A stretch of DNA of 64,000 nucleotides from an uncultured Candidatus Saccharibacteria bacterium (GTDB taxonomy: Bacteria; Patescibacteriota; Andersenbacteria; UBA10190), in contig CAYJKV010000002.1 of NCBI GenBank assembly GCA_964371255.1, forward strand, positions 66,553 to 130,552. The letters run 5' to 3'. The translations under genes and the position numbers were made by a program. Position 1 is the stretch's first letter. Each line of letters begins with the position of its first letter. The notes beneath the pieces were generated by a model. That model was not told the origin of the DNA. It saw only the letters and a program-made list of their open reading frames with translations, and ran no database searches. Shown piece by piece: positions 35,433-56,535 of this stretch.

Positions 35433-35642
35433 GTTATTTCATCCTACCTTACAACGCTTTGTTTGTTAACAACCTTACCTGAATCTGTGACTTGGACTTA
35501 TTCACTAAAACAGATAATCGCACGAACCGCCGTGCTATACTTTAGCTGTGTTTGCAGATTCTCCAGATACCTGGCTGGACACAACACTCTATTTGACAAT
35601 TTCGGAACTATCAAGCATATTAACACCTCATTTAATCATTTC

Positions 35643-36704
35643 ATGCGTACTCATAACCCATCCCCAACCCCTTCTTGCCTGTCGCCAGCAACTTTAATGG
35701 CGCAGCATAGTCAGTCTGGCGCCAAACCGAATTCGGCCTCCCGCCTGGCAATCATTCTACCTGCCCTCAATGAAGCTAAAACCATCGGCTCGGTCATCGC
35801 GCGCGTACCGCATAATATTGCTGGCATTATCGACGTTACTGTCATTGTCATAGATGACGGTTCGACCGACTTAACCGCCGACATCGCCCGCTCCTTTGGC
35901 GCCGTCGTTGTCTCGCACGATTTAAATAAAGGGGTTGGTGCCGCTTTTCACACTGGCCTGCGGACGGCCTTGGCGTCAGGTGCGGACATTATTGTTAATA
36001 TAGATGCTGACGGACAATTTAATCCGAGCGATATCCCCTCCCTGATCAAGCCCATTCAATCTGATCAAGCCGACTTTGTCACCGCTACCCGTTTTGCCGA
36101 TCCCGCCCTGACGCCCCAGATGCCAGCGATCAAACTGCTTGGTAATCACCTCATGACCGCGATGGTGAATTTTATTACCAAGAAAAAATTTACCGACGTT
36201 TCCTGCGGTTTCCGTGCTTATTCGCGGGAAGCTGCGTTGCGACTGACTTTGTTTGGTTATTTTACTTACACTCAGGAAACATTTATCGACCTGGCCTTCA
36301 AGCAGATTAGGATGGTGGAGGTGCCCCTGGCTATCCGCGGCGTCAGGCAGCATGGCCGCTCTCGGGTGGCTAATAATCTTTGGCGTTACGGTTTGAAAAC
36401 GACTACTATTATTTTCCGTGCGGCGCGTGATTATCGTCCGCATTATTTCTTCGGATTGCCAGGCTTAGTAATTTTTGCCAGTGGGGTAGGCAGCGGTCTT
36501 TTTTTGCTGCAGCATTTTTTACGGACTGGCCAAACATTTCCCTATCGCTCACTAGTACAACTGTCCGGTATTCTAATTATTGTTGGTTTTTTGCTGCTGT
36601 TCCTGTCCTTGCTGGCTGACATGATGCATCGCAACCGCATTATCGTGGAGGAGGCAGTTTATCATGCCCGCAAAGCTTCCTACCAGAATACGGATCTCCG
36701 CTGA
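35643..36704 (+). CDS. GT2 polyprenyl-phosphate sugar synthase (Dpm1/GtrB/ArnC-like) with C-terminal TM helices
   Basis: LAIILPALNEAKTIGSVIA...VIVIDDGSTD...DADGQFNP (DxD), followed by two C-terminal TM helices as in GtrB. The maximal ORF starts at 35463; plausible starts are the ATG at 35643 or 35697. Confidence 0.75.
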   Translation: MRTHNPSPTPSCLSPATLMAQHSQSGAKPNSASRLAIILPALNEAKTIGSVIARVPHNIAGIIDVTVIVIDDGSTDLTADIARSFGAVVVSHDLNKGVGAAFHTGLRTALASGADIIVNIDADGQFNPSDIPSLIKPIQSDQADFVTATRFADPALTPQMPAIKLLGNHLMTAMVNFITKKKFTDVSCGFRAYSREAALRLTLFGYFTYTQETFIDLAFKQIRMVEVPLAIRGVRQHGRSRVANNLWRYGLKTTTIIFRAARDYRPHYFFGLPGLVIFASGVGSGLFLLQHFLRTGQTFPYRSLVQLSGILIIVGFLLLFLSLLADMMHRNRIIVEEAVYHARKASYQNTDLR

Positions 36705-36734
36705 ACAGCCTTTCGCTGTCTAAATTTCTATCTT

Positions 36735-37856
36735 GTGCCAGCGTCAACCTCGTCGACCATCAAAATATTGTTTATTTCCCGGGGCTGTCGTCTCTCCGCC
36801 GGAGGCATGGAGCGTTTTAGCTACGACCTCATCCATGCCGCTCACCGCCAACCGGATTTATCCGTCTCTGCTATTTATCATCACGGTCATCGCTTAACCT
36901 CCCCTCTTTTTTCTATCCTTGTCATCCCTCGTGTTCTCTGGCAAGCCCGCCGTTTTGATGTCGTCCATCTGGGCGATCCTATGTTAGCTCTGGCTGGCTG
37001 GCTAGTAAAAACCATCTGGCGGAAACAAGTGGCAGTTTCCGTTCATGGTCTGGATATCACGTATCCCAATACTTTCTATCAGTTATACCTGCGCTTGTTC
37101 TTTTGCCAGCTCGATCAATATTTCCCCATTAGCTCACATGTTGCGAAATTACTGCGCTCATTTAATGTGACTGGTCATGTCCATGTTATTAATCCGCCTC
37201 TTTCCATCGACTACTTCGATCCTACTATCAATCGTGCTCAACTTTCATCCTGGCTGTCGCGTTTTAACATTGCTTCTCCTGCCGCTGACAATGGCGATCG
37301 CCCGATATATTTCTTAACCACGGGTCGTCTGGTTAGTCGCAAAGGCCAAGCCTGGTTCATCCAGTCTGTCCTGCCTCATTTACCTGCTCGGGTGCAGTAC
37401 TTGATTGCTGGCAGTGGACCGTTGGATCAATCCTTGCGCCAATTGATTAAGACACTGCAGCTTGATGATCGTGTTCACTTACTAGGACGTGTTTCGGTTG
37501 ATGATTTGCGTCTTCTCTACAACACTGTTGACGCCTACCTGCAGCCCAACATTCAAACCAAGAACGATGTTGAAGGATTCGGCCTGGTCGTGCTGGAGGC
37601 AGCTGCTTGCGAGCTGCCTGTCTATGCCTCCGCTGTCGACGGTATACCGGATGCCATTATTGATAATAAAAATGGCCGCTTGCTGCCAGCTGGTGATCCA
37701 CTCTCGTGGCAAACTGCTTTGGAGCAATACATATTAAAACCACACCGTTCCCCGGCAGCGCGCGCTTACACCCTCCAAAAATTCAATTGGACTTCTTATC
37801 TACAAACAATGCTTAATGCTTTAGGCCAGGATCCGGTGTCGCACAGTCGTTACTAA
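36735..37856 (+). CDS. glycosyltransferase family 4
   Basis: 373 aa with VEGFGLVVLEAAACELPVYASAVDGIPD, the GT4 EX7E-type region. Confidence 0.8.
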   Translation: MPASTSSTIKILFISRGCRLSAGGMERFSYDLIHAAHRQPDLSVSAIYHHGHRLTSPLFSILVIPRVLWQARRFDVVHLGDPMLALAGWLVKTIWRKQVAVSVHGLDITYPNTFYQLYLRLFFCQLDQYFPISSHVAKLLRSFNVTGHVHVINPPLSIDYFDPTINRAQLSSWLSRFNIASPAADNGDRPIYFLTTGRLVSRKGQAWFIQSVLPHLPARVQYLIAGSGPLDQSLRQLIKTLQLDDRVHLLGRVSVDDLRLLYNTVDAYLQPNIQTKNDVEGFGLVVLEAAACELPVYASAVDGIPDAIIDNKNGRLLPAGDPLSWQTALEQYILKPHRSPAARAYTLQKFNWTSYLQTMLNALGQDPVSHSRY

Positions 37857-38513
37857 TCTTCCGATGGCGCCGGATCGTCCCGCATCAATTTCTCTGCGAT
37901 ATGATGGCAACGCCAGCATTTCATACGTGCATCGTCCGTCATAGTTAATTTTGTTGGGATGAATTTCCCACTCATCAAAAAAATATTGTAGCGCAGTTTT
38001 GAGTGATAAATAAATGGATCCATGGTGCCAATGTGTCGCCCGGCCGAACCGCAATCGGAACCGGCGCAGCATCAAACTCTCATGCGAATAAGTATTATGG
38101 AATTCACAGATATGCGGTCCCACATAAATGTTATCAATTTCTTTTGGTTCCAGATAATTTAGCGCATTATCCAACAGGCCGTTTACTATCGTTTTTCTGC
38201 TGACATGCAATGCCAGCACTTTCTCTTCCGTCATTATTATTACCGGTGCGCAATCTGCCGTATCAATGCCGATCACCCGGTCATCATCGATAGATAGATA
38301 AATTCCATCTGCTTCTGTCTCGCTAGTTATATGTGCCGCCCGCACGATATTGCCGCCGTGTGTCTGGTTAACTTTGACTATTTGATCGTCTGTTGTTTGG
38401 TCATTTATTTCTGATACGATCCATCGTCCGAATGTTTTACCTTCAGTTTGTTTTGGCTCCCGAGCCACTTGTTTTATAAATGGCGAGGTCCCCATTGTGA
38501 AATACTTTTTCAT
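37821..38513 (-). CDS. PgeF/YfiH-family protein (DUF152 multicopper-oxidase-like; peptidoglycan editing factor family)
   Basis: 230 aa with VNQTHGGNI, ADG and TADCAPV motifs of the YfiH family. The 3' end overlaps the convergent GT4 gene by 36 nt. Confidence 0.65.
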   Translation of the reverse strand: MKKYFTMGTSPFIKQVAREPKQTEGKTFGRWIVSEINDQTTDDQIVKVNQTHGGNIVRAAHITSETEADGIYLSIDDDRVIGIDTADCAPVIIMTEEKVLALHVSRKTIVNGLLDNALNYLEPKEIDNIYVGPHICEFHNTYSHESLMLRRFRLRFGRATHWHHGSIYLSLKTALQYFFDEWEIHPNKINYDGRCTYEMLALPSYRREIDAGRSGAIGRLVTTVRHRILA

Positions 38514-40290
38514 AGCTCTCTAACTCCCATTTAACAATCTCCTCCTGCCTGATTAACAAATATTGCGCTGCTTGTAAAGCCTTTACCTGTGCTGCACGGT
38601 TTCCTTGATAAGCTTGTTTGACGTTTTCCAGCATATTATCCTCCGGTGCTAGCCAATAGTCTGCCCGGAGCATTGCTCGTCCCGTAAACATTGGTACCAT
38701 CCACGGTGCTTCGCTGGCGGCCAAAATAACATCGGTCGCCTTCGTATTTTGACGGATATATTCCAAAGCCTCCTGAGCGGGTAGGTCTATTCGTTGCTCG
38801 TCCTGCCGCATTAAATGATCATGCGCCCTGGCTCCACTGATAAGCGCCGGCAGCAAAAATATTGTGATTATCCCAACGCTTGCCCCAACTTGCGCCAGCC
38901 TGGTTATCGGCGGGGCAGACACATACCACAATCTGCGCCACTTATAAAATAAATTGATGGCACTCGGCAACAATGATGGGTAACCAACCATTAACGCGTG
39001 ATAGATAAACCTTTCACCGTTGGCGACAACAATATCCCTTTGCGATGTCAGGAACATTAAAGTTGCCATGCCCATTAAAGTTGCCATAGTCAATTCCGCG
39101 CCGCTACTCGTTCCTCTTTGGTTTAAAATTATCAACGCCAAAATAATCACGACGGGCGCTAAACGCATCAACGACTCGGCAGCGGTGTATGAAAAATGCG
39201 GCCAACCGAGGCCAGCGTCCCCGGCGGAAAAATTAGCAAACAAGACAAACCAGACAATTATTCCCGCCAGCCACAGCCCTCGCCTTCCTCTGGTTTGTTT
39301 GGCCGTTAATGATTTTTGTAAGTAGTAGACGATTGTGACTGCCACCGCCGCCGCCCCGGTGACTGCGTTGGTCAGCATCAACAGCAGCACCAACACGCCT
39401 GCCGTAACATACAGCCGCACCCGTTGCGGGCCTTCCTCCCTCTCCGCCTCAACTAATAATGTCAGGACAAGCAGCCACAGGCCCATAATAAAGAAATGGG
39501 TCTGTGGGTAGATATAACTATCCCAGGATACTGCCAGCGCATAACCAATAATTGCGGCTTGAATGATCAGGACACCAACCCGCGATCGTATTCCGAGCCA
39601 CCACACTTCCTTTTTTTCTGGTTCCGGCCACCAGGTATCCATTAACAGGAAAAACATTGGTATGGTTATGATAATTTGCAGATACGTTAAGGTCGGCAGA
39701 AAATGCATCCAGTCCATACCCCAGCCAAAAGCTTTTATCAGTGTGGCTAAGCCGGCGTGCCACAACGATGGATACTCCAAGTATTCATTCGCGGCAAATG
39801 GGTTACCGCTTACCAGACCTTCCTCTAATAGAGACCTTTGCACTAAGGTCACCATTGTCATCGTGTCCCCATTATAAAATCCATGCGTTACCCAGGCGCT
39901 ATTCTGGAAACCATTTCTGCTTTGCACTAACCAACTGGCCAGCAGCACGCCTGCTAATACGAACACTACCGCCGCATCCCTTCGCCCGCTGCCTGCCTTG
40001 TGGTAAGGCCATGACCACTGTTTGAATATTAACAGCCAAGGTACTAAACAAACTAAAGCGCCGGCTAAGAAGAACGTCTCCAGATTTATGGCCTGTCCGA
40101 TGGTTCTTTTAATGAGAACTAATACCAGCCATTGGGCTTCCCAGAACGTCCCGGCACAAGCCAGTAGGGTCAATGTTCGCTGATGTTTAAATAATATTCC
40201 CGCTGCTAGCACGGAAGATATCGCTAATATTACTATCGTCACCATCATATTTTCATCATCTATCATCTGCACCCAAATATCCAGTTTCAC
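38443..40290 (-). CDS. large polytopic membrane protein, GT-C-like (candidate polyprenyl-phosphate-sugar-dependent glycosyltransferase)
   Basis: 615 aa with at least 12 predicted TM helices and loops rich in aromatic residues. No soluble catalytic motif recognised. It sits between two Dpm1-like GT2 genes. Confidence 0.45.
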   Translation of the reverse strand: MKLDIWVQMIDDENMMVTIVILAISSVLAAGILFKHQRTLTLLACAGTFWEAQWLVLVLIKRTIGQAINLETFFLAGALVCLVPWLLIFKQWSWPYHKAGSGRRDAAVVFVLAGVLLASWLVQSRNGFQNSAWVTHGFYNGDTMTMVTLVQRSLLEEGLVSGNPFAANEYLEYPSLWHAGLATLIKAFGWGMDWMHFLPTLTYLQIIITIPMFFLLMDTWWPEPEKKEVWWLGIRSRVGVLIIQAAIIGYALAVSWDSYIYPQTHFFIMGLWLLVLTLLVEAEREEGPQRVRLYVTAGVLVLLLMLTNAVTGAAAVAVTIVYYLQKSLTAKQTRGRRGLWLAGIIVWFVLFANFSAGDAGLGWPHFSYTAAESLMRLAPVVIILALIILNQRGTSSGAELTMATLMGMATLMFLTSQRDIVVANGERFIYHALMVGYPSLLPSAINLFYKWRRLWYVSAPPITRLAQVGASVGIITIFLLPALISGARAHDHLMRQDEQRIDLPAQEALEYIRQNTKATDVILAASEAPWMVPMFTGRAMLRADYWLAPEDNMLENVKQAYQGNRAAQVKALQAAQYLLIRQEEIVKWELESYEKVFHNGDLAIYKTSGSGAKTN

Positions 40291-40345
40291 CTGCTGGTTA
40301 TTTGTTACTTGCTTAAAAATCCCTTAAATTTATATTCATATATCT

Positions 40346-41074
40346 ATGCTTCCCCGGCCATCCCTCACGCTTAGCTTAATTATACCCGCCTACAACGAGG
40401 CTGTTCGCCTGCCTGTCTTTTTATCCAGTATCGTTAATTTCCATCAAGCTCACCCCGGCTATATCACAGAAATAATTTTGGTCGATGACGGGAGTACGGA
40501 TGCGACGGTGGCTGTGGCTCAGCAGTCTTCTTCCCGACTCCCTCTGAAAATTATTGTTTTACCGGTAAATCAAGGTAAGGGAGCCGCCGTTGCGGCCGGT
40601 ATTAAGCAGGCCCGTGGCGATGTCATAGTTTTTATGGACGCCGACGGCGCTACCGACATTTCTGAATTACCGAAAATGATAGCCGCTTTACAAAATTCTG
40701 ATATTGCTATTGGTAACCGTTGGCTTCCCGGCTCGAACACGCAGCGACATTCGCTCCTTCGCCGCTTTTCCGGCTGGACTTACCGGCGCTATATGGGACT
40801 GTTTAATATGAGTCAGATTGATACCATGTGCGGTTTCAAAGGATATCGCCGGAAGGTAGCGGCCAGCCTGTTCGCCAATCTACTGGAGCCTCGCTGGCTA
40901 TTCGATACGGAAATTGCTTACAAGGCCACCCTCGCCGGTTACACTATTACCAATTTCCCCATTCACTGGGAATCTAAAGATGGCAGTAAGCTTGGTACCT
41001 TAACACTCCTTAAATCCGCCTTAGGAATTTATCCCCTGATTTCTAGGATAAATAAAGACCACCAGGAAACTTGA
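40346..41074 (+). CDS. GT2 dolichyl/polyprenyl-phosphate hexosyltransferase (Dpm1-like)
   Basis: 242 aa with LSLIIPAYNEAVRL...ILVDDGSTDAT...NQGKGAAV...FMDADGATD, the Dpm1/PpmI-type catalytic domain without TM. Confidence 0.85.
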   Translation: MLPRPSLTLSLIIPAYNEAVRLPVFLSSIVNFHQAHPGYITEIILVDDGSTDATVAVAQQSSSRLPLKIIVLPVNQGKGAAVAAGIKQARGDVIVFMDADGATDISELPKMIAALQNSDIAIGNRWLPGSNTQRHSLLRRFSGWTYRRYMGLFNMSQIDTMCGFKGYRRKVAASLFANLLEPRWLFDTEIAYKATLAGYTITNFPIHWESKDGSKLGTLTLLKSALGIYPLISRINKDHQET

Positions 41075-41383: not shown

Positions 41384-42514
41384 ATGAAAATTGCGTTTGT
41401 CACAACCCAGTCAGCTAATGGCTCAACCCTGATCGGGCGTACGTTGCCGGTTGCTAAATACATCGCGTCTAAGCATGAGGTTCATCTGTTGGCTTTTGCC
41501 CCCCTGCCGGCCGTAGCCGGCCTGACCTGTCATGCGACTGGTCGTGATCCTTTTACGCGTACTCGACATGGCAAGAAACGTTTACGGTCCTGGCCTTTGC
41601 TGTTCAACATGCTTTCCTCTGCCTTGTCTATCGCCTGGCACCTCGGTCGCATTAATCCTGACCGGGTGGTGATTGTTAAAACCTTGCCCCACAACGTTCT
41701 CGGTGTTCGTTTATGGCACCTCGCTCACCCGCGTCGTCGGGTAATCATTGACGTTGACGATTTTGAGCTAACAGCCAACCGCCTAACATCTTTCTGGCAG
41801 CGCGCCTCCATCCATTGGGCACAGCGCTGTGCAGCTCATCTGTCCAGCCACGTTATCACCGCCACGCCATTCCTCTCTGATTATTTTTCCAATCTTCGGC
41901 CTGCTGCCGCCGTCACGCTTATCCCGACCGGTCTTGATCCAATAGCCCCGCCGGTCTATTCCGCGCAGCCGCACCTTGCCTACTTCGGCAGTCTTTCCAT
42001 CTCCTCCGGCCATCGCGTCGATTTTCTAGCAGAGATTTTATCAGCCACCCTTAAATCATTTCCTCATGCTAAACTAATCATCGCTGGGACTGGCGATGAT
42101 GAACATGCCCTAAAAGAATCATTTGTCAGCCTTGGTATCGCCCAGTCTGTTATCTGGCACGGTCGTTTTTCTCAAACCGATATCCCTATGCTGATAAAAA
42201 ATACAGCAATCATAGTCGATCCTATTGATTCCTCAGTGGCTAATCGCGCGAAGAGCAGCTTTCGCGTCCTGCTGGCGGCTAGCGTCGGCTTACCGGTTGT
42301 TACCAGCGACGTCGGCCTCCGGCCAATGCTCCTTCCTTCCTCTTTGCACCACCGTTTTTTTGCCGACCCCACCCCAGCGTCTATGACAAGCCAAATTGTC
42401 AATTTATTGACCAATCCTTTATCCCCGGCCGATCGACAGCTACTAGTCTCACACACCGCCCCCTATTATTGGTCGCGGCTCGCTCACGACTATCAGTGTA
42501 TTCTTGAGTCATGA
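41384..42514 (+). CDS. GT-B glycosyltransferase-like protein (divergent GT4 / group 1)
   Basis: 376 aa beginning MKIAFVTTQSANGSTLIGRTLPVAKYI, with a C-terminal Rossmann-like half (LIIAGTGDDEH...GLPVVTSDVG). Confidence 0.5.
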   Translation: MKIAFVTTQSANGSTLIGRTLPVAKYIASKHEVHLLAFAPLPAVAGLTCHATGRDPFTRTRHGKKRLRSWPLLFNMLSSALSIAWHLGRINPDRVVIVKTLPHNVLGVRLWHLAHPRRRVIIDVDDFELTANRLTSFWQRASIHWAQRCAAHLSSHVITATPFLSDYFSNLRPAAAVTLIPTGLDPIAPPVYSAQPHLAYFGSLSISSGHRVDFLAEILSATLKSFPHAKLIIAGTGDDEHALKESFVSLGIAQSVIWHGRFSQTDIPMLIKNTAIIVDPIDSSVANRAKSSFRVLLAASVGLPVVTSDVGLRPMLLPSSLHHRFFADPTPASMTSQIVNLLTNPLSPADRQLLVSHTAPYYWSRLAHDYQCILES

Positions 42515-44835: not shown

Positions 44836-44883
44836 TGTGATAAAGATGCTACTAGTCATAACCCATCCTAATTTGTTTGCACT

Positions 44884-46332: not shown

Positions 46333-46916
46333 TGAAACGTTTTTTTACAATTTCCTTAATCGGCCTGGTTCTGATTATTCTCTTCTTGGCAGCAAATTTC
46401 TTCCGTTCGTCTTCAGTCGCCGCTGGTTCTTTAGAAAATATTGATGGCATACCTTTTCCATTAGACGCCAATCGTCCCTTAGTCACGGAAAAGTTAGCCC
46501 ATGCTGATCTTTACCTTAATCATTCGCGTTTTGCCAGACGTCTGGAGCTGTCCATCACTTTCACCCCCCTGGGCCTTACTGGGTTGGCCGTGGGCATTAG
46601 AGATAATTCTTTTTGGCTCAGCTATAATAAAATAAATTTGTGCTGCTCAGAGGCTGAATTAGCGCAGCCAAATATTCCCTTAACTAAACTGATCACCATC
46701 CCAGTCACAGACAAATTGGCCGACCAGGATGGCTCGCTGGACCTTATGTTTTTTGCCACCTACCCCAACAGTCAATTAACCGAAGATGAGGGAGTATACG
46801 ATCGCACGCAATGGTTATTAAACAATTTAACAATAATTAATCGACCCGCTTGGCCTGACCTATCTTCCCTCCGGGACTTTATCAAATCCTCACTGCTCCG
46901 CGAACGTGCCTTATGA
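46317..46916 (+). CDS. hypothetical protein with an N-terminal signal-anchor
   Basis: 199 aa with N-terminal TM helix FTISLIGLVLIILFLAANFF. No family recognised. Overlaps its neighbours at both ends. Confidence 0.4.
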   Translation: MDRSLMKRFFTISLIGLVLIILFLAANFFRSSSVAAGSLENIDGIPFPLDANRPLVTEKLAHADLYLNHSRFARRLELSITFTPLGLTGLAVGIRDNSFWLSYNKINLCCSEAELAQPNIPLTKLITIPVTDKLADQDGSLDLMFFATYPNSQLTEDEGVYDRTQWLLNNLTIINRPAWPDLSSLRDFIKSSLLRERAL

Positions 46917-48382
46917 AAAAATCCTTCCGTCTAATATTAATTATGCTCTTTCTTCTCTCTTCCATCGGCCTTTTTTCTATCAACACCGAGCGAGAATTTG
47001 TCAGCTATACGCCGCAAGAGGGGGAATCAGGCGTTGTGCTTGGTTCGGATGCCGCTTACCGGCAGACTTTTGTTACCGAGCGTCATTCCATTAGCCGTCT
47101 GACGTTGTTCCTACGTCCGCTGATCAGTGAGCTGCCGCCGGCCTCTTTCACCGTCAATTTATCTACTGGAGACACTGTAAGAAAAAGCACGACTGTACCC
47201 GCCTCCCTTGTTGACCGGGATGGCGCTACGCAAATCAAGTTCCCCTCTCCCCTGCCCACCACTCCCGGTGACACCATCACTCTGACTATCGATATACCTG
47301 CCTCATTACACAATTTGCTCCGCGCTCAGGTTGTCAGTGCGGCGGATAATCCTGACATATCTGACATTTCTTTTTTCGTCAATGATGCCCAACAGCCGCT
47401 ACCCCTTGCCTTCCAATTATTTTATGATTATCGACCTCCGCTGTCTTATCAATTGGCTATTTATCTGATCTTTATTTGTATTTGGCTGGCCTCTCAGCGC
47501 TCTCTCCTCCATCCCGCGATCATCACCTCATATGTCATTGCGAGTGTTCTTGCCTTCTTAAGCCCGATGATCCTGTTAACCTCGATCAACTGGTTTCTGG
47601 CCATTGCCTTTGTCCTGGCCGTGGGCGGCATGATATTATTGCTTCGGACTTACGGCCTGACTCCGCCTAGCATCTTTCTGGGGGCTAACGCCTTTGGCTT
47701 TTCCACTTATTTTGCTCTCCATGCCCAGTCCGGGCGTGATCTATTACTACTATTTTCGCTATTGCCCTGGCTGTTTTTACTGTCGCGCCCTTCCATAAAA
47801 TCGCCGCTCCGATTCATGAGCTTGGCCGTTCTGTTGTGTGGCTTGCTGATTTTTCTGCTGCTGGCCCACTACCGCGCACCAAGCGTCACTCCCCTCCTGG
47901 TGGCTAATCTTAAGGATATTTTACTAGATCCCAACCAAATCCCAACCGCAGACAAGTTTCAAGCGGCCTACTATGCTCTGCAAATACCTCGTGGCGATCC
48001 GGCCACTATTCTCGCTGCGGGTGGTTGGGATAACTTCGGTAGTTATTTGGGGTATCTAAATCTTCCCTTCGCTCTTGTTGGTTTATTATTTTATTCTAAG
48101 CAGTCTCGCGGCATCGCTCTGCTTGGGGCATTAGGATTCCTCGTCGCTGCCTTCTCGCCCCTGACTACGCTGTTAGTACCTTCGCTGTGGTTTCCGCCGC
48201 AATATTTGATCATTCTTCTGTCTTTCGCTCTGGCGTTTTTCAGCGCCTTCGGCTTGGAAAAACTGCGTCTTTTCCTTGGTTTACACCCGGTCACCACGTT
48301 CATCGTATCTTCCCTGGCCGTAATTGCCCTGTTCGATTTGCTCAACGTTACTAGCAAAACATTGCAGTTTGGCTTGCTATGA
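46913..48382 (+). CDS. hypothetical membrane protein (N-terminal anchor, beta-rich middle domain, C-terminal polytopic region)
   Basis: 489 aa. No family recognised. ATGA overlaps on both sides. Confidence 0.4.
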   Translation: MKKSFRLILIMLFLLSSIGLFSINTEREFVSYTPQEGESGVVLGSDAAYRQTFVTERHSISRLTLFLRPLISELPPASFTVNLSTGDTVRKSTTVPASLVDRDGATQIKFPSPLPTTPGDTITLTIDIPASLHNLLRAQVVSAADNPDISDISFFVNDAQQPLPLAFQLFYDYRPPLSYQLAIYLIFICIWLASQRSLLHPAIITSYVIASVLAFLSPMILLTSINWFLAIAFVLAVGGMILLLRTYGLTPPSIFLGANAFGFSTYFALHAQSGRDLLLLFSLLPWLFLLSRPSIKSPLRFMSLAVLLCGLLIFLLLAHYRAPSVTPLLVANLKDILLDPNQIPTADKFQAAYYALQIPRGDPATILAAGGWDNFGSYLGYLNLPFALVGLLFYSKQSRGIALLGALGFLVAAFSPLTTLLVPSLWFPPQYLIILLSFALAFFSAFGLEKLRLFLGLHPVTTFIVSSLAVIALFDLLNVTSKTLQFGLL

Positions 48383-49995
48383 AAACTATGGACTCATCAA
48401 CCAGCCAAGCATCTGAATTCGCTCAAACTGCCACGTCAGCCGGCATGATTGGCCTGGCTGCTTTTGCTGGTTCTCTGGTGGGGTTCTTTTTGCAGCTGTT
48501 AGTGGCCTATTATTTTGGTGCTTCTAATCAGACTGACGCGTACTTTATGGCCCTCTCCACTTCGGAGCTTTTATCCAAACTGCTTCTCGGCGGATCAATC
48601 ACGGCTGTCTTCCTGCCCATGTTTATTAGCCGCCTCGCGCAAGGCAAGGCGCAAGCCGCTTGGCACATGGCTCTTAATTTGCTTCACCTGACACTCGTTG
48701 CGTTCGTTATTTTGTTAGCCTGCCTAGCCTTTTTTGCGGATCCTTTCGTCTCCTTCATCTCCCCTGGTTTTGATGCCGCAACGCATGAATTAACAACCCG
48801 TTTGTTATTAGTATTATTGCCGTCCTTTGCCGTTCTGTACTTGGTGGAATTGACTACTTCCATGCTTCAAGCGCTACATCATTTTTTTGTGCCGGCGCTG
48901 CTGCGCATTGTTTCCCCTGTTGTTTCTATCCTAACCATCCTGGCCTTAGTCAAATCGATTGGTATTTATGCGCTGGCATTAGGTGTAGTCATTGGTGCCT
49001 TCATCCAGCTATTCATGCTCCTCTCTACGCTTCGTCGGCAGGGTTTCTCGTATTCTTTTGTTTTTCAGCCCTTTGACCCGGCTATTAAGCGTCTTATTTA
49101 TCTGACCTATCCTTTCCTGTTATCCGTGCTTATTACTCAAGGTGCCGGCATTACCTACCGTATTCTTGTCTCCGACTTAGCCTCGGGCAGTTTAGCCGCC
49201 ATTAAATTTGCAGAAAAAATTACGCAATTATTAACGATCATCTTTTTAAACTCAGTTACTATGGTTATTTATCCGATCCTGTCTGCCAAGGCTGCTCAGC
49301 ATGACTGGTTGGGCATGCGCGATACTATCGCCAGTAGTATTCGCCTTATTTTCTTTGTCACAGTCCCGGTGATTACGGGTGTCGCCCTTCTTCGTCTTCC
49401 CTTGATCTCATTTATTTATCAACGGGGATCATTTTCTGCCTCCGACGCAGCGATGACCAGTGTGGCTTTGCTCTTTCTCGCGATCGGATTGACCACCAAT
49501 GGTATTAGTTCGGTCCTCGGTCACGCCACCTTAGCCTTGCAGGAAACTAGGGCAGCGGTCGCTGTTAGTATCGCGTCGCAAGCAGTGGCCATCTCGTTGT
49601 TCGTGCTATTGGTGCCCAAGTTGGCGCACGCCGGTCTGGCCCTAGCTTCTTCCTTGGTACCTCTCGCGATTGCTCTATTATATTTCCTTTATTTAACTCG
49701 TTTCCTCCCCCATTTGTCCTCTATCTTTATTCATTCCACCTATATTAAGACGATTGTTCTAACCCTGCTCATGGGAACACTTGTGTTCCTGATTAGCCCC
49801 TGGACAATGTTGATCACGGACACCCGGCCGGTCTCACTCTTCCTTCAGCTTGCTGTGCCCGCACTCCTCGGTGCTGCTTTCTTCATAACGGCCGCTTATC
49901 TTTGGCGTATACCTGAATTAATTCAGTTGCTGTCCATTGTTCGCCTGCGCTCTTCAAAACTAACACTGCTTTTCCGCCGGTCGTCGGCCGATTAA
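48379..49995 (+). CDS. MurJ/MviN-family lipid-linked oligosaccharide flippase
   Basis: 538 aa with 14 TM helices and the MurJ N-terminal signature YYFGASNQTDAYFMALSTSELLSKLLLGGSITAVFLPMF (the FGAS..DAF.......R.....G...AAF.P motif). Confidence 0.7.
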   Translation: MKTMDSSTSQASEFAQTATSAGMIGLAAFAGSLVGFFLQLLVAYYFGASNQTDAYFMALSTSELLSKLLLGGSITAVFLPMFISRLAQGKAQAAWHMALNLLHLTLVAFVILLACLAFFADPFVSFISPGFDAATHELTTRLLLVLLPSFAVLYLVELTTSMLQALHHFFVPALLRIVSPVVSILTILALVKSIGIYALALGVVIGAFIQLFMLLSTLRRQGFSYSFVFQPFDPAIKRLIYLTYPFLLSVLITQGAGITYRILVSDLASGSLAAIKFAEKITQLLTIIFLNSVTMVIYPILSAKAAQHDWLGMRDTIASSIRLIFFVTVPVITGVALLRLPLISFIYQRGSFSASDAAMTSVALLFLAIGLTTNGISSVLGHATLALQETRAAVAVSIASQAVAISLFVLLVPKLAHAGLALASSLVPLAIALLYFLYLTRFLPHLSSIFIHSTYIKTIVLTLLMGTLVFLISPWTMLITDTRPVSLFLQLAVPALLGAAFFITAAYLWRIPELIQLLSIVRLRSSKLTLLFRRSSAD

Positions 49996-50012
49996 TCTTA
50001 ATTTATAATCTT

Positions 50013-51101
50013 ATGTCATTCGCCGTCGTTGAATATTCCAGCAAATCGGGCGACATTTGGCGTCATACACCAGAGCGGCCTAATTATTTATGCGATCCCG
50101 CCCGGGTCATGGATCCAACAAGTTTTGGCTGTTATGTTTCTGCGCTGTCGGGGGAACACATCCCGCTGACAAAAATTATTAATGCTTCCCGCTTTCTTAA
50201 TCGCGTCCACAGAAAACTCCATGGTGCCTGGCCGACCAACTATTCATTGGATTACTTCACCAAGTTTGATCGCCTGTTAGTCGTCTATGAAGCAGCGAAT
50301 AGTCGTACTTTATCCACTTTTATCCACCGCCTGCAGCGAGAATTACCAAACCTCAAGATCCTGGGCGTTCCCACGCAACCTTATGGTTTGTTGCGTTTAC
50401 AGTGGCAGATTGAACCGCAGATTAAACTTGACCTGCAAGAGTTTATCAATAGTTGCGATATTTTTATTTCTATCGTTAAAAGCACGACCGACCTCTGGCA
50501 AAGTTTTACAACGCACCCGGTCCATTATTTACCTCAGCCGTATCCGGTCGAGCACGCGCTGCGTAATTGGCAACCCCGGTCAAGCAAACAGCCAATTATT
50601 TTTGTCTCTGGTGTGACCGCGCGGCCCAATATTCAGCTCGGCCACGAGGTTGCCTCAGCCTTGCAGCAACAATTCCCTGACCACATTATTCATGTCACTA
50701 ATACGCCTGATGCGCCGCTTGATTCAACTCATCTTCAAGGTCTGAAATACGAGGTTAAGCCCTTCTTGTCTTGGTCTGATCATCTGAGATATTTATCAAC
50801 TGTTAAATTAGTTATCAATACCGACTTTACGCAAACTAGAGGCCGCGTCCAAATGGATTGCGCGGCTGTCGGCACCCCATCAGTGGGAGCGGATTCCGAT
50901 GCTCAGCTGGACCTCTGGCCACATGGCGCTGCGGCACCTGACACACCCGTTAAGACGATTATCAAATCCGCTAGCCGTCTTTTGTCGGATAGCCACGTCT
51001 ACGAAGAGTGGGTGAAGTTTGCCCGGTCAAGACTGCCGTTTTATAACTATGCGCACAGTGCAGACCGCATGAATAGTTTATACTCGTTAATTAAAAAATA
51101 G
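50013..51101 (+). CDS. hypothetical protein, possibly a divergent GT-B-fold glycosyltransferase
   Basis: 362 aa. Weak similarity only (RVQMDCAAVGTPSVGADSD resembles the GT4 EX7E region). Confidence 0.35.
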   Translation: MSFAVVEYSSKSGDIWRHTPERPNYLCDPARVMDPTSFGCYVSALSGEHIPLTKIINASRFLNRVHRKLHGAWPTNYSLDYFTKFDRLLVVYEAANSRTLSTFIHRLQRELPNLKILGVPTQPYGLLRLQWQIEPQIKLDLQEFINSCDIFISIVKSTTDLWQSFTTHPVHYLPQPYPVEHALRNWQPRSSKQPIIFVSGVTARPNIQLGHEVASALQQQFPDHIIHVTNTPDAPLDSTHLQGLKYEVKPFLSWSDHLRYLSTVKLVINTDFTQTRGRVQMDCAAVGTPSVGADSDAQLDLWPHGAAAPDTPVKTIIKSASRLLSDSHVYEEWVKFARSRLPFYNYAHSADRMNSLYSLIKK

Positions 51102-51111
51102 CGCAACCTTT

Positions 51112-52209
51112 ATGTCTAAAGCTGCCTCGGAGCGATCATCTATCCTCACCCCTAAATTCTTAGTCCGTCATCTCGGCAATATGGGTGATATGATTTTTAT
51201 TGTTCCGCCTGTCTTGGCTGCTCTCAAGACCGACTACCCGGGCTGCCACATTACCCTGGTCACGTCATGGGGATACAAACAGCCATCACGCTGGCCGTTT
51301 TCTCAAACAACCTGGTGGGGTGAACGCAACCAAAGCGGTCACAGCCTGCATTTAATAATGACCAACCCACATATCGATCAATTAATTCATTGGCATGACC
51401 GGCGGCTCTCTTTATCTGGAACTATTTGTCATGAAGATGATCGCTCTTTTCCCACTTGGAATAAGTCTTATTATGAGGAGCAAGTGCGCAGCGGGCGCTT
51501 TGATCGCGTCATTGAATTGGATTTTGGTTTGTCCGTGACAGACAATCCTCTGACGCGCGCCTACGCCCAAGCTGGCCTCACTGGCGCTCGTCCGATCGAC
51601 TACCACCTGTATCTTACCGCCTCCGATCGTCAAATTGGCGAAGCTGTCATGTCCAATTTTCCCCGTCCGCGTATTGTCTTATTGGAGAGTCTAAGCCACC
51701 ATTCCACTCGCGGTTGGGATCCGGCTAAAGTGATTGCCTTGTCGTCGGCTATCACTGAAAAATATGGCGTTGAGCCGATTTGGTTCGGTTCCAAGTACCA
51801 TCATTATTATCATGGCCGTCCGCTTTCACTGCGCGAGAATATTGCTACTTTAACCGTCTGTGATGTGGGTATCGGAGTTTTATCCGGCCCGCTTCATTTC
51901 GCCGCTGCCGCCGGTCTGCCGACGCTGACGCTATACTGCGACCACCCGCTTCGCCGCGCGGCGCCAGCTTACTTTCAAAACCCCTCCTTGCCTCCTTCCA
52001 CCGTCCAACATCGCACCCTTCTGGGTCCGCATAAGATGCCAATGAGAATTTTGAAAGGGGATCGTGATTCGCTTTGCTTAACCCCAACCGAATTAGCTGC
52101 TCAAAATTTTATTAATTGGTCAAATCCAGGCAAGCAATCCACCAAGAGCTGCTTATCTGTTATTACTGTCGATGAAATCATGACCGTCCTTTCAGATATG
52201 CTAAAATAA
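51112..52209 (+). CDS. glycosyltransferase family 9 (heptosyltransferase-like)
   Basis: 365 aa with the N-terminal GT9 motif MGDMIFIVPPVLAALKTDYPGCHITLVTS and the C-terminal LSGPLHFAAAAGLPTLTLY. Confidence 0.65.
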   Translation: MSKAASERSSILTPKFLVRHLGNMGDMIFIVPPVLAALKTDYPGCHITLVTSWGYKQPSRWPFSQTTWWGERNQSGHSLHLIMTNPHIDQLIHWHDRRLSLSGTICHEDDRSFPTWNKSYYEEQVRSGRFDRVIELDFGLSVTDNPLTRAYAQAGLTGARPIDYHLYLTASDRQIGEAVMSNFPRPRIVLLESLSHHSTRGWDPAKVIALSSAITEKYGVEPIWFGSKYHHYYHGRPLSLRENIATLTVCDVGIGVLSGPLHFAAAAGLPTLTLYCDHPLRRAAPAYFQNPSLPPSTVQHRTLLGPHKMPMRILKGDRDSLCLTPTELAAQNFINWSNPGKQSTKSCLSVITVDEIMTVLSDMLK

Positions 52210-52285
52210 CCCCCTTGCCCCTCTTTACTACCTGTCATAATTTACATATAGATCTCACCTAATTTATTCTTCCATAAATATATAT

Positions 52286-53014
52286 ATGTCACCGCCAAAG
52301 ACAGCTCACGCCAACTCCATCTGGGTTATTATTCCTACGTATAATGAGAAACTAAATATCGGCCGTTTGGTCGCGGATATTTTTTCGCTGCCATTCGCTG
52401 ACCTTTCCGTTCTCATTGTGGATGATAATTCGCCTGACGGTACCGGCTCTTTGATCACTCAGCTACAAAACAAATACCCCCGGCTGTTTCTGCTCTCGCG
52501 TCCCGTCAAAAATGGCTTGGGCCGCGCATATGTTGATGGTTTTTCTTACGCCATTGGCCAGGGTGCCACGGCCATTGTTCAGATGGATGCCGACTTCTCT
52601 CACAACCCCGCCGACATTCCCCGCCTGCTTTCGTCTCTTGATCAGCATGATGTGGTTGTTGGTTCACGCTATGCTCATGGTATTAGCGTCATAAATTGGC
52701 CTCTGCGCCGGCTGCTGCTGAGTACCGGCGCTAACATTTATGCTGGTTTTATTACTGGCATGCCTTTTAAGGACTGTACAGGTGGCTTTCGGGCTTGGCG
52801 TGTCCATGTCTTAAAACAAATTAATTTCTCCGATGTGAAGGTTGACGGCTATGGGTTTCAGATTATTATGCTCTATCGCGCCTGGCGTCAACACAGTCGT
52901 ATCACGGAGATACCCATCATTTTCACTGAGCGGCGGGAAGGTCAGTCTAAAATGAGTCGGACTATTATTGCCGAAGCTATGCTTTTGGTTTGGAAATTGC
53001 GTCTTTTTGGTTAA
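52286..53014 (+). CDS. GT2 polyprenyl-phosphate mannosyl/glycosyl transferase (Dpm1/Ppm1-like)
   Basis: 242 aa with IWVIIPTYNEKLNI...LIVDDNSPDGT...GLGRAYVDG...QMDADFSHNP. Confidence 0.85.
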   Translation: MSPPKTAHANSIWVIIPTYNEKLNIGRLVADIFSLPFADLSVLIVDDNSPDGTGSLITQLQNKYPRLFLLSRPVKNGLGRAYVDGFSYAIGQGATAIVQMDADFSHNPADIPRLLSSLDQHDVVVGSRYAHGISVINWPLRRLLLSTGANIYAGFITGMPFKDCTGGFRAWRVHVLKQINFSDVKVDGYGFQIIMLYRAWRQHSRITEIPIIFTERREGQSKMSRTIIAEAMLLVWKLRLFG

Positions 53015-53036
53015 GCACCACTGACTCTATCGTTTC

Positions 53037-55283
53037 GTGAACCCATTACCGGCCAAGTCAATCACTCAGGCTTTCCCCCTTCTCTTCCTTTTGCTGATAA
53101 TCACTGCCGCGTTTTTTCCCTTGTTTATCGGTCGTTTTTATGCCATTGGTGACATCCGTGAGGTCTATATTCCGCTGGAATATTTTTTTCATAATCAGAT
53201 ATTAGCTGGGCACTTGCCTGCCTGGCTCGCCGACGCGGCCTGGGGGTTTCCGGTTATCGCCTCAGCGCAAATCGGTTTCTTCTACCCACCCTTACTCCTG
53301 CTGCGTTACCTGCCGCCCGCCATCTATTTGTCATTTCTGCTATTAATCCATTTTTTGTGGTTCGCCTTGGGTGCGTATCTTTTTTATCGGCGCTTTGTGT
53401 CATCAGCTGCTGCCGCGCTTGGCGCCCTGTCTTTATCTTTAGGCGGATTCGTAACCTTGCATCTGACGCATCTTAATATCATTTTTTCCCTAGCTTGGTT
53501 GCCTTGGCAGTTCCTGGTCATCTATTTACTCCGCCGTTCCCTGAGTACACGATCGGTGCTGAGTTTATCAGTCTTATTGGCGCTACCCTTTCTAGTCGGG
53601 CAGATCCAAGTTCCGCTTTTAATGTTTCTAGCCGCCAGTGCCTGGCTCCTTTATCTGCGTCATCGCCATCAATTATTATGGCGCCGCTCATTGCTCATTC
53701 TCGCCGCCCTTGTTATTTTGATGATTTTTATCAGTGCTGTTCAGCTTTTGCCGACCTATGAACTCATGCAGCAATCTACTCGGGATCTCTCTTCCACGTC
53801 CTTTGATCTGACTCGCGCTAATCAGCATAGTTTTCCCCTTTATCACTTGCCAACGGTTCTGTTTCCTCGGTTTTTTGCCAATGATAACCTCTATTGGGGC
53901 CGGCGTCTCCAAATCGAATATGGTTTGTACTTTGGTACGTTCCCTTTATTAGCGGCTTTTGTCTGTCTTTTCCGTCGTCGCTTCCATCAAGCGGTTTATG
54001 CCGACCCTCTTCCCCGTGTCGTACCCTTCTTTGCGGTTTTGTTAATCTTATCGTTCCTTTTCGCCCTCGGCTCCCTGTCACCTTTTCGCCTGATAAAAAT
54101 TGAACCATCATTATGGGTCTTTTCCGCGCCGGCTCGCTGGCTGCTGCTGACCAGTTTTTCTTTGTCGTTTTTTTCCGCTGTCGGCGCCGATCGTTTTTTT
54201 CGCGATCCTGCCCCCTGGCTACCTCTTATTCGTCGCTGCGTCATCGCTCTTTATGGCTTTGTCTTGCTGAGCCAATTTGCCCTTTGGCTGCTTATCAAAA
54301 CGGTGCCCGCCTGGCTTTATCCTGGGTTATCAGTTACTCATCAGGATAAAATCGCCTCGCTTTTAAATAGTGCTTTTCATTCCGGCCTAAGCTTACTTTC
54401 TCCTTATACTTATTTACCCTTGCTCGTGATCCTGATCTTCGCCTTGCGTTTTGTCCTCCGGCATCCGGCCCGGTGGGCTCTGTCGCTGACCGCTCTAGAA
54501 TTATTCATCCTCTTTATTACCACCACCCCGACCGTACCCTGGCGTGATATAACATCGCCGCCTGCTTCCTTAGCTGCCCTGCCTGAGGTTATCCGAACAG
54601 GACAAGCGCGCTTATATTCTATTCGTGACGGTGGCGATACCGGCGCCTATTTTACTGATCCTTCATCCCGCGCCAACGCCGCCATTCGTCAGCAGCAACG
54701 AGAATTACTCATACCCCTGATTCATACCCAATTTAACTTAGCCGGTATTGAATGGCCGGCCTCACTTGATTTATCAAATCATTCCGCCATTTTTTCCCAT
54801 CTTCGCGCCAATGACAGCTATCAATTAACGAATGCCGTTTTATCAAAAGAACTAAATATCGGCGCTGTCCTGACTTACAGCGGCCAATCAGCCCAAATTG
54901 AGGCTTTGGATTTCTCGCCTCGATTGGAAATAATTTCGCCGCAGAATATTTCCTCTCCTTTGCCCTATCCTTACTCGCCGGACGGCTCGTTTTCTATTGA
55001 CCTGCATGTCACCGAACCTTCGCGCCTGGTCGTCCGCGACTCTTTTTATCCTGGTTGGCGTGCTACTATTGATGAAAAACCAACACCGATCACCGCTTAC
55101 CGGGATATCTTCCGCCAGATTGCTCTTCCCGTTGGCCGTCACCACGTCTCTTTTTCCTACCGTCCTGTCTATTTATATGCCGGTATTATCATCTCGGCAC
55201 TGACCGCCAGCCTCATTCTGATTTATGTCTTGATTACTTACACCCATGATCGCCGATCCATCAACCTAACAGACAATCTATGA
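53037..55283 (+). CDS. large polytopic membrane protein (GT-C / YfhO-like candidate glycosyltransferase)
   Basis: 748 aa with about 14 TM helices across the first ~500 aa, a soluble domain and a terminal TM. It lies immediately downstream of a Dpm1-like GT2 gene. Confidence 0.45.
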   Translation: MNPLPAKSITQAFPLLFLLLIITAAFFPLFIGRFYAIGDIREVYIPLEYFFHNQILAGHLPAWLADAAWGFPVIASAQIGFFYPPLLLLRYLPPAIYLSFLLLIHFLWFALGAYLFYRRFVSSAAAALGALSLSLGGFVTLHLTHLNIIFSLAWLPWQFLVIYLLRRSLSTRSVLSLSVLLALPFLVGQIQVPLLMFLAASAWLLYLRHRHQLLWRRSLLILAALVILMIFISAVQLLPTYELMQQSTRDLSSTSFDLTRANQHSFPLYHLPTVLFPRFFANDNLYWGRRLQIEYGLYFGTFPLLAAFVCLFRRRFHQAVYADPLPRVVPFFAVLLILSFLFALGSLSPFRLIKIEPSLWVFSAPARWLLLTSFSLSFFSAVGADRFFRDPAPWLPLIRRCVIALYGFVLLSQFALWLLIKTVPAWLYPGLSVTHQDKIASLLNSAFHSGLSLLSPYTYLPLLVILIFALRFVLRHPARWALSLTALELFILFITTTPTVPWRDITSPPASLAALPEVIRTGQARLYSIRDGGDTGAYFTDPSSRANAAIRQQQRELLIPLIHTQFNLAGIEWPASLDLSNHSAIFSHLRANDSYQLTNAVLSKELNIGAVLTYSGQSAQIEALDFSPRLEIISPQNISSPLPYPYSPDGSFSIDLHVTEPSRLVVRDSFYPGWRATIDEKPTPITAYRDIFRQIALPVGRHHVSFSYRPVYLYAGIIISALTASLILIYVLITYTHDRRSINLTDNL

Positions 55284-56488: not shown

Positions 56489-56535
56489 CAGTGACGCGTA
56501 TTAGTTCTTTAATGATTGCTCTATAGCTATTTTTT

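Follow-up and report, generated by a model that had tools for sequence, protein, structure and literature searches.

Three candidate polyprenyl-phosphate-sugar synthases and GT-C-like membrane proteins encoded in a conserved locus beside the dcw cluster of Candidatus Andersenbacteria

A dense glycan-biosynthesis locus occupies 35.4–60.1 kb of the window analyzed here, a 64,000-nt stretch of contig CAYJKV010000002.1 (positions 66,553–130,552). The locus encodes three candidate polyprenyl-phosphate-sugar synthases of glycosyltransferase family 2 (GT2a, GT2b and GT2c), related to dolichol-phosphate-mannose synthases (DPMS), together with the polytopic membrane proteins M1, M2, M3 and M4. M1 and M2 are predicted to adopt the GT-C fold and M3 is a YfhO-family protein. 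We consider it reasonably probable that the three synthases and extracytoplasmic GT-C enzymes act together in building a cell-envelope glycan; all functional roles given here are predictions. The close homologs of M1, M2 and M3 all originate from Candidatus Andersenbacteria/Patescibacteria metagenome bins, and the region is best explained as a chromosomal cell-envelope glycan locus of Candidatus Andersenbacteria (Patescibacteria/candidate phyla radiation, CPR), adjoining the dcw cell-wall cluster.

An earlier interpretation made without database searches (the sequence-only reading) had proposed three paralogous pairs of a Dpm1-like synthase and a large membrane protein with multiple transmembrane (TM) segments. 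The six open reading frames (ORFs) concerned were all found where it had placed them, and a fourth polytopic protein, M4, had been overlooked. The synthases and membrane proteins are as follows.

35643–36704, + strand: GT2a, 353 aa, PF00535; candidate membrane-anchored polyprenyl-phosphate-sugar synthase of the GtrB/ArnC/AglJ type
38443–40290, − strand: M1, 615 aa; candidate GT-C-fold membrane glycosyltransferase, without Pfam or NCBIfam family
40346–41074, + strand: GT2b, 242 aa; candidate soluble DPMS-like synthase, divergent from M1
42511–44835, + strand: M2, 774 aa; GT-C-fold candidate, divergent DUF6541 relative with a C-terminal α/β domain and a β-sandwich resembling a carbohydrate-binding module (CBM)
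46913–48382, + strand: M4, 489 aa; polytopic membrane protein with a local YfhO-like module
52286–53014, + strand: GT2c, 242 aa; candidate soluble DPM1/Ppm1-like polyprenyl-phosphate-sugar synthase
53037–55283, + strand: M3, 748 aa; YfhO-family polytopic membrane protein

The best solved relative of each of the three GT2 proteins is PfDPMS, the dolichol-phosphate-mannose synthase of Pyrococcus (5mlz; E values of 2e-13, 7.5e-22 and 2.7e-31 for GT2a, GT2b and GT2c, respectively), and the next-best relative in PDB is in each case ArnC. The alignments with PfDPMS span the whole catalytic domain (chain residues 22–24 to 233–246), involving residues 6–222 of GT2b and residues 11–238 of the 242 of GT2c (the latter against chain residues 24–246). 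The window holds seven GT2 genes, and local BLAST revealed that only these three align over ~211–223 of the 223 DPMS residues. A MAFFT alignment showed that the motifs NE, DDxSxD, DAD, D..GF and G.SK are retained in all three proteins (GT2c carries MDADFSHNP); the DAD metal site, D..GF and G.SK on the acceptor side, and end-to-end alignment of the catalytic domain with its interface-helix region are the features by which the DPMS/GtrB/ArnC family is recognized. GT2a, GT2b and GT2c are therewith predicted to be polyprenyl-phosphate-sugar synthases, and the Dpm1/GtrB-type assignment made in the sequence-only reading was borne out. The possibility that they are processive synthases was rejected, since they are small DPMS-like enzymes without a multi-TM channel.

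The mutual identity of GT2a, GT2b and GT2c is only 24–28%. Identity to the archaeal DPMS amounts to 24% for GT2a, 34% for GT2b and 36% for GT2c, and the latter two are nearer to the archaeal enzyme than to each other. As judged from these comparisons, the three proteins represent ancient lineages rather than recent duplicates. Since their mutual identity is only ~25%, each is probably specific for a different sugar. GT2a contains two C-terminal TM helices, as do ArnC and GtrB, and its alignment with ArnC includes the TM region.

An AlphaFold2 model of M1, built from 35 homologs, had a pLDDT of 91.5 and a pTM of 0.92. A Foldseek search of PDB with this model yielded 19 matches at E values below 1e-3, all to GT-C proteins (STT3, DPY19, AglB, AftA, ArnT), and the next match had an E value of ~0.4. 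No Pfam or NCBIfam match was obtained for M1, or for ten of its most distant relatives, and distant relatives gave just a weak C-terminal DUF6798 signal. In an exhaustive profile search of 1.84 billion proteins, the relatives of M1 formed 167 representative clusters. The residues N140-G141-D142, E172 and R418/R427 are invariant in the 35 homologs. On the evidence of its model, M1 is a candidate founder of an undescribed GT-C family, and it is the only one of the membrane proteins that justifies such a proposal.

For the AlphaFold2 model of M2 (pLDDT 89.5), the top 14 Foldseek matches in PDB are all GT-C proteins (STT3 at 1.6e-7, AftA, DPY19, AglB, PglB, ArnT): 12 matches at E≤1e-3, followed by ArnT at 1.1e-3 and 3.1e-3. 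The C-terminal region separately matches CBM35/CE2-type β-sandwiches and the C-terminal globular domain of AglB; a GT-C enzyme carrying a CBM has a precedent (PMC11127046). The score of M2 against DUF6541 (PF20176) is 21.7 bits, under the gathering threshold (GA) of 29, yet the match spans model positions 1–499, and 17 of the 47 M2 homologs match this family at E≤1e-3 (best 5e-8). M2 may best be described as a divergent DUF6541 relative, not a member by the curated cut-off. Its invariant residues are D122, D152, D155, E236 and E247, arranged in part as GD122 and D152-x-x-D155. Literature searches found no publication on DUF6541 or on Andersenbacteria glycosyltransferases, and M2 would provide a first functional handle on DUF6541.

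M1, M2 and M3 are polytopic, with ~12–14 hydrophobic segments each, in agreement with the sequence-only reading. Contrary to its further claim, they are not paralogous: no significant BLASTP match was found among them, and hhalign comparison of their profiles gave probabilities of 8.8%, 0.9% and 25%, with no detectable homology. Profile searches with the alignments of M1, M2 and M3 against PDB sequences returned nothing meaningful even at E values up to 10, and no oligosaccharyltransferase (OST). None of the three matches the Pfam proxies for CAZy GT-C families (PMT, PMT_2, STT3, Arabinose_trans and others), and the OST motif W[WYF]D[YFWN]G or WWD is absent from M1–M4. The models, which cover M1 and M2 only, suggest that these two proteins resemble the OSTs STT3/AglB/PglB (GT66) in fold alone; both display the GT-C architecture of a polytopic TM core plus an extracytoplasmic domain.

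A long loop with invariant Asp/Glu residues near the N-terminal helices was found in the M1, M2 and M3 families. In M1 (D142/E172) and M2 (D122/D152/D155) this loop comes after predicted helix 4 instead of helix 1. Judged by the positive-inside rule, from the way in which Lys/Arg content alternates among the short loops, the acidic loops of all three proteins would lie outside the membrane.

These results bear on whether the large membrane proteins could instead be transporters, or proteins of the polymerase/ligase type, found close to GT2 genes through the general clustering of envelope genes. The pairing of GT2 and membrane protein genes is indeed loose (see below), and only M1 and M2 have structure models, the assignments of M3 and M4 being drawn from sequence. 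Against this, no transporter fold matched M1 better than E 0.4, the confident matches of M2 are GT-C proteins followed by carbohydrate-binding or esterase-type domains with no transporter fold, and invariant acidic residues in such loops would be in keeping with GT-C enzymes. We find this explanation hardly credible. For M1 and M2 the transporter reading was rejected, as the Foldseek searches returned GT-C proteins and no MFS or ABC fold among the confident matches.

M3 passes the threshold of the Pfam YfhO model (PF09586; 38.7 bits versus a GA of 28.5). The same model is matched by 36 of its 38 homologs (best 1.8e-22), and the NCBI name of the homologs is “YfhO family protein”. M3 is thus assigned by its sequence to the YfhO family, described as one of GT-C-fold teichoic-acid glycosyltransferases (PMC8035078), and it is a candidate GT-C enzyme. 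Its invariant residues G38-D39 and E48 follow the first TM helix. A tblastn search of M3 against plasmids, seeking an annotated YfhO for comparison, produced no match. The statement in the sequence-only reading that the membrane proteins have no recognizable motifs and could be new GT-C families consequently holds for the orphan M1; it fails for M3, which passes the YfhO threshold, and more weakly for M2, given the DUF6541 matches of its homologs.

M4 consists of an N-terminal domain of ~150 aa, probably extracytoplasmic, followed by ~9 TM segments. It has no Pfam match. Comparison of its profile with that of M3 (hhalign) gave a probability of 92.6% over 79 columns, a local module common to the YfhO-like family. 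M4 is poorly conserved (22–58% identity), and no ORF is present at its position in 6 of 23 related loci. It could possibly act as a further GT-C enzyme.

As an example of a target, the sequence-only reading named S-layer or pilin O-glycosylation. In that case the GT-C enzymes would act like PMT/DPY19/TMTC, attaching O- or C-linked sugars to these or other surface proteins. This would be consistent with DPY19 and STT3 being top fold matches, with one M3 homolog also matching the TMEM260-like protein O-mannosyltransferase family, and with the PMT-family genes found next to YfhO in a related genome. However, neither in the operon nor beside it was an S-layer or pilin gene recognized, and polysaccharide genes (Wzx, GT4, GT9-like, TagF-like, deacetylase) abound in the locus. 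Moreover, the CBM-like domain of M2 suggests a glycan acceptor, and the characterized YfhO enzymes act on teichoic acids (PMC8035078). A role in protein glycosylation therefore seems distinctly improbable.

The remaining genes of the locus are listed below.

36735–37856, + strand: GT4a, PF13692/PF00534; cytoplasmic GT-B glycosyltransferase, starting 30 nt after GT2a
37821–38513, − strand: PF02578 (Cu-oxidase_4/YfiH-type) protein, a conserved neighbor of M1
41384–42514, + strand: GT4b, PF13692; GT-B glycosyltransferase, its stop in a 4-nt overlap with the start of M2
44884–46332, + strand: Wzx-type MOP flippase, PF01943/PF13440
46317–46916, + strand: h199, bitopic with one N-terminal TM helix, conserved after Wzx
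48379–49995, + strand: MurJ-family flippase, PF03023, 217 bits
50013–51101, + strand: h362, without family, conserved upstream of GT2c
51112–52209, + strand: GT9-like glycosyltransferase, conserved upstream of GT2c
55280–56488, + strand: TagF-like (Glyphos_transf) protein, PF04464 (28.4 bits; GA 22.1), start overlapping the M3 stop by 4 nt
56536–60065, + strand: operon tail comprising a RimK-type ATP-grasp protein, a polysaccharide deacetylase, GT2d (an ordinary GT2, not DPMS-like) and GT4c

The distribution of this locus was examined by scanning 185,579 species genomes with the M2 profile, which yielded 34 loci whose genes were mapped by tblastn. The gene order is kept in 32 Andersenbacteria loci (33–84% protein identity), and 2 Parcubacteria loci contain it in reduced form; the arrangement is therefore not due to chance. 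The order in Andersenbacteria is SpoIID / GT2a GT4a / (PF02578) M1 / GT2b / GT4b M2 Wzx h199 (M4) MurJ h362 GT9-like GT2c (M3) TagF-like deacetylase. GT4a directly follows GT2a in related loci (conserved there in 20), GT4b and M2 are always contiguous (adjacent in 31 loci, including Parcubacteria), and Wzx always comes directly after M2 in the Andersenbacteria map. M1 and GT2b are neighbors in 26 loci (median gap ~50 nt; in the window they are divergent, with a gap of 55 nt). The PF02578 gene (37821–38513, − strand) overlaps the end of M1, and most Andersenbacteria loci have it between GT4a and M1. Insertions occur between GT2b and GT4b in related loci and reach 4.4 kb.

The two Parcubacteria loci are distant and contain only GT2a-GT4-GT4-M2, preceded by Wzx and UDP-glucose dehydrogenase. 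In one of them (L033, 3939–16738) the genes encode Wzx, UDP-glucose dehydrogenase, a GT2a-like protein, two GT4s, an M2-like GT-C that is short (513 aa) and lacks the CBM-like tail, and a further GT4. TagF (249 bits), GpsA and a nucleotidyltransferase-HAD fusion are encoded on the opposite strand. L033 may be seen as a compact, ancestral form of the module, here associated with genes for a glycerol-phosphate polymer.

Besides the families, folds, acidic loop residues and synteny observed, we infer the donors, flippase, partnerships and acceptor as follows: (i) the three DPMS/GtrB-like GT2s would charge polyprenyl phosphate (presumably undecaprenyl phosphate) with sugar at the cytoplasmic face; (ii) the lipid-phosphate-sugars would be flipped, the candidates being the Wzx- or MurJ-type MOP flippases of the operon, because no GtrA-type protein is present; and (iii) M1, M2, the YfhO-family M3 and perhaps M4, as enzymes of the GT-C fold, would transfer the sugars outside the membrane onto a glycopolymer, in whose assembly the GT4, GT9-like and TagF-like enzymes encoded in the operon would act. 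The logic of a lipid-phosphate-sugar synthase and an extracytoplasmic GT-C enzyme, already put forward in the sequence-only reading, is supported as a prediction by the DPMS/ArnC-like GT2s, the GT-C models of M1 and M2 and the YfhO family of M3. Our preferred guess for the acceptor is a teichoic-acid-like, glycerol-phosphate-containing wall polymer, because a TagF-like gene is coupled to M3, and TagF and GpsA lie beside the module in L033.

MOP/MATE flippases that move polyprenyl-phosphate-sugars have been described (GacK, PMC8035078; ORF14, PMC11127046). A MurJ-family flippase is conserved in the operon in all loci reaching that far. The protein in the window (48379–49995) may be the lipid II flippase of the organism or a dedicated flippase for the glycan pathway.

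Several observations weigh against this model. The YfhO Pfam match of M3 covers its last 49 residues only (672–720, the C-terminal end of the model), and the Foldseek matches have moderate TM-scores (0.37–0.47) and a large root-mean-square deviation. Synthases of the DPMS/GtrB/ArnC type associate with the membrane through C-terminal TM helices (GtrB, ArnC, PfDPMS) or through a separate partner protein (DPM1/DPM3, GacI/GacJ); GT2b and GT2c lack TM helices, and no small membrane-partner gene was found in the locus. No GtrA-type flippase (PF04138) was detected among the scanned ORFs of the window, nor any small multi-TM ORF in 35–61 kb, though such a protein may be encoded elsewhere in the genome. 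Two GT4 genes lie between GT2a and M2 in the oldest module, which fits the building of an oligosaccharide at least as well as a monosaccharide-donor pathway, and the TagF-like match is weak (28 bits). Furthermore, among 15 informative loci M3 is absent after GT2c in 7, where the TagF-like gene follows directly, and present in 8. One genome lacking M3 has a YfhO ~47 kb away, beside two PMT-type GT-C genes and with no GT2. Taken together, the absence of M3 from 7 of 15 loci and this remote YfhO without a GT2 indicate that strict GT2/GT-C pairing does not hold. At L035 2573–8271, in an Andersenbacteria genome other than that of the window, the YfhO homolog adjoins two more GT-C genes (PMT_2; PMT/PMT_2), with no GT2 nearby; small Andersenbacteria genomes evidently carry many GT-C enzymes.

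The pairs of the sequence-only reading were positional guesses, each synthase being said to lie next to its membrane protein. This is true of GT2c and M3 (same strand, 22-nt gap), the sole directly adjacent pair among the three. It is not true of GT2a and M1, which are separated by two genes, lie on opposite strands and are 1.0–2.8 kb apart in all loci, or of GT2b and M2, between which are a 309-nt gap and GT4b. GT2c is conserved whether or not M3 follows. The data favor a partnership of M1 and GT2b, an older module consisting of GT2a-GT4-GT4-M2-Wzx, and a GT2c-M3 pair that is facultative. If the partnerships are one-to-one, the best guess is M1/GT2b, M2/GT2a and M3/GT2c.

The closest known systems are those of Firmicutes, in which the C55-P-sugar made by a GT-A enzyme is exported by a flippase and serves as donor for a GT-C enzyme, divergent in sequence, that glycosylates a wall polymer (PMC8035078); YfhO, the GT2 CsbB and a flippase glycosylate teichoic acids in this manner (PMC8035078). 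Bacillus subtilis has three GT-A/GT-C pairs (CsbB/YfhO, YkoT/YkoS and YkcC/YkcB; PMC8035078) and Lactococcus lactis has three (CsdAB, CsdCD and CsdEF) that share one flippase (PMC8035078). The presence of several pairs per genome is therefore established biology. The multi-component systems CsbB/GtcA/YfhO, GtlA/GtlB, CsdAB/CsdCD/CsdEF with CflA, and GacI/GacJ/GacK/GacL (PMC8035078) share with the Andersenbacteria locus (i) a GT2 C55-P-sugar synthase and a divergent polytopic GT-C, (ii) several pairs per genome, (iii) a YfhO-family member, (iv) a possible Wzx-type flippase (GacK) and (v) wall glycopolymers as targets. Unlike these systems, the Andersenbacteria components belong to CPR bacteria and are gathered in one ~25-kb conserved locus beside dcw, without a GtrA-type flippase. 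Of the three GT2s, two (242 aa each) are soluble and of the DPM1 type, not membrane-anchored as in the CsbB/GtrB type; M1 has no family, M2 is DUF6541-like rather than PMT_2, and pairing is not strict.

The Gram-negative systems for O-antigen glucosylation (GtrA/GtrB/GtrC) and lipid A modification (ArnC/ArnT) follow the same donor logic. GT2a aligns with ArnC including the C-terminal TM helices, and ArnT is a significant fold match of M1 and M2. M1 and M2 are, however, only ~10–13% identical to ArnT, and neither a GtrA or ArnE/F flippase nor genes for lipid A or lipopolysaccharide were found in the window. Its genes for peptidoglycan and of the teichoic type suggest that the envelope is of the Gram-positive type. 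In the three-component pentofuranose systems of GT136 (PMC11127046), a GT-C that had not been classified before and bears an additional CBM likewise acts with a MATE/MOP flippase instead of GtrA, and side chains are added after polymerization. Their donor synthase differs, being a PRPP-dependent UbiA-type enzyme and not a DPMS-like GT2.

The two GT4 genes of the old module call for comparison with the N-glycosylation pathway of Haloferax. There, AglJ starts a glycan on dolichol monophosphate, soluble glycosyltransferases extend it, and after flipping AglB transfers it en bloc, while AglD/AglR/AglS add the final mannose from Dol-P-Man (PMC3871713). By analogy, GT2a would put the first sugar on polyprenyl monophosphate, the GT4s would extend it in the cytoplasm, Wzx would flip it and M2 would transfer the whole glycan to a protein or wall acceptor (module GT2a-GT4a-GT4b-M2-Wzx), with GT2b/M1 and GT2c/M3 adding final sugars outside, as AglD/AglR/AglS do. 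The best NCBIfam model of GT2a is AglJ (TIGR04182), which matches over nearly the full length with 144.6 bits. The best structural matches of M2 are STT3, then AglB and PglB, in addition to the separate match to the AglB C-terminal globular domain. The contiguous GT2a-GT4-GT4-M2 genes after Wzx and UDP-glucose dehydrogenase in distant Parcubacteria correspond to the order AglR/AglM/AglJ/.../AglB (PMC3871713), the 4-nt overlap of GT4b and M2 suggests translational coupling, and the ORFs scanned (18–62 kb) included no initiating phosphoglycosyl transferase of the WbaP/WecA type, the sole PF00953 protein being the product of the gene in the MraY position (16949–18010) of the dcw cluster.

In its wider features too, the Haloferax volcanii system (AglJ, AglG/I/E, AglB, AglD/AglR/AglS; PMC3871713) resembles the Andersenbacteria locus, with at least two DPMS-like GT2s, soluble glycosyltransferases acting after the first GT2 and before the final GT-C, flippases like Wzx, a terminal enzyme with an STT3-like fold, an extra GT-C adding the last sugar from a lipid-phosphate-sugar, and a gene order in the agl cluster like that of L033. 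On the other hand, the locus is bacterial, M2 has neither a WWDYG-type motif nor sequence-level similarity to AglB or any other OST, and the monosaccharide transferases DPY19, AftA and ArnT match M2 about as well as OSTs do. The AglJ score of GT2a is far under the equivalog cut-off of 325 bits, and an initiating phosphoglycosyl transferase could lie outside the window. We regard an Agl-like en bloc pathway as the most interesting of the alternatives, but as unlikely. Quite unlikely is a bolder, composite proposal, namely that the GT2a-GT4-GT4-M2-Wzx module of Andersenbacteria and other Parcubacteria is a bacterial counterpart of Agl, which would build a glycan on polyprenyl monophosphate, beginning with an AglJ-like GT2 and without a phosphoglycosyl transferase, and transfer it en bloc by an STT3-fold enzyme lacking WWDYG, M1 founding a CPR-restricted GT-C family that decorates the product.

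The same GT4 genes could instead belong to lipoglycan assembly of the mycobacterial lipomannan/lipoarabinomannan type. In that case, GT4s like PimA/PimB would glycosylate a membrane lipid anchor in the cytoplasm, and after flipping GT-C enzymes would polymerize or branch the product with polyprenyl-P-sugar, one synthase feeding several GT-Cs. The best PDB match of GT4a is PimB' (5.8e-13); this similarity is generic to GT4 proteins and confined to the C-terminal half, and the PDB search gave no match for GT4b. GT2c is of the soluble Ppm1/DPM1 type and conserved independently of M3, Andersenbacteria genomes carry extra unpaired, clustered GT-C genes (YfhO, PMT, PMT_2), and AftA is among the top fold matches of M1 and M2. 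The mycobacterial Ppm1/PPM-dependent GT-C mannosyltransferases and AftA-D/Emb are comparable in that a soluble DPM1-like synthase feeds several GT-Cs, some steps use PimA/PimB-type GT4s and the GT-Cs bear C-terminal carbohydrate-binding modules. They differ in phylum and envelope, and by sequence the proteins studied here could not be placed in Pfam families of the GT83, GT85, GT87 or GT53 type. Since inositol or lipid-anchor genes are not evident either, and what the TagF-like genes suggest is a wall polymer, not a lipoglycan, lipoglycan assembly appears improbable. The favored reading remains the decoration of a wall glycopolymer by GT-C enzymes supplied with lipid-phosphate-sugars.

CPR/Patescibacteria live attached to host cells and rely on their surface structures, and there is almost no experimental knowledge of their cell envelope. 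A conserved ~25-kb locus by the division/cell-wall cluster suggests heavy investment in an extracytoplasmically decorated surface glycopolymer. The mechanism of lipid-phosphate-sugar synthase plus GT-C is textbook knowledge, and the value of the present assignment is incremental; what is new is the CPR host, the orphan GT-C-fold family of M1, and a single conserved locus next to dcw that brings together three synthases, three MOP flippases and three to four GT-C-like proteins.

The gene run 41384–60065 is tightly packed, with junctions that often overlap. A promoter-like site (10/12) is located at 35593–35621, upstream of GT2a, the start of which is most likely 35643 rather than 35463. Promoter-like sites occur at chance level (15 found versus 13.5 expected) and terminator-like sites modestly above it (16 versus 9.3 expected, sd 3.3), so that the operon boundaries are defined by gene spacing only. 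An Rfam scan of 33–62 kb gave no match, and h199 had no Pfam or NCBIfam match.

Upstream of the glycan locus are dcw genes (MurC/D-type ligases, MurG, FtsW, MraY), a Wzy_C-like protein and a Wzx-GT4 fusion. The latter, an 879-aa ORF (29757–32396, − strand), has an unusual architecture, with a Wzx-type flippase domain (Polysacc_synt_3, residues 30–332) fused to a C-terminal GT4 domain (703–845). Between the dcw genes and the glycan locus (20894–24716, + strand) lie an extra Mur-ligase-like gene, a DegT-type aminotransferase gene and a FemAB-family gene, a cluster that suggests a non-standard peptidoglycan stem peptide or cross-bridge.

Two further observations concern genes in housekeeping surroundings (alaS, rpoA). 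A weak Baseplate_J-like protein (21.6 bits) is encoded at 3162–4601 (− strand), and the region 7259–10393 (− strand) encodes a TraG/TrwB-like coupling ATPase with a C-terminal treble-clef zinc finger, beside a 474-aa orphan with N-terminal hydrophobic segment(s). Finally, GC skew is negative (−0.11 to −0.28) in all 2-kb bins of the window (1–64000), whichever strand the genes occupy, and AT skew is mostly negative across the same interval.

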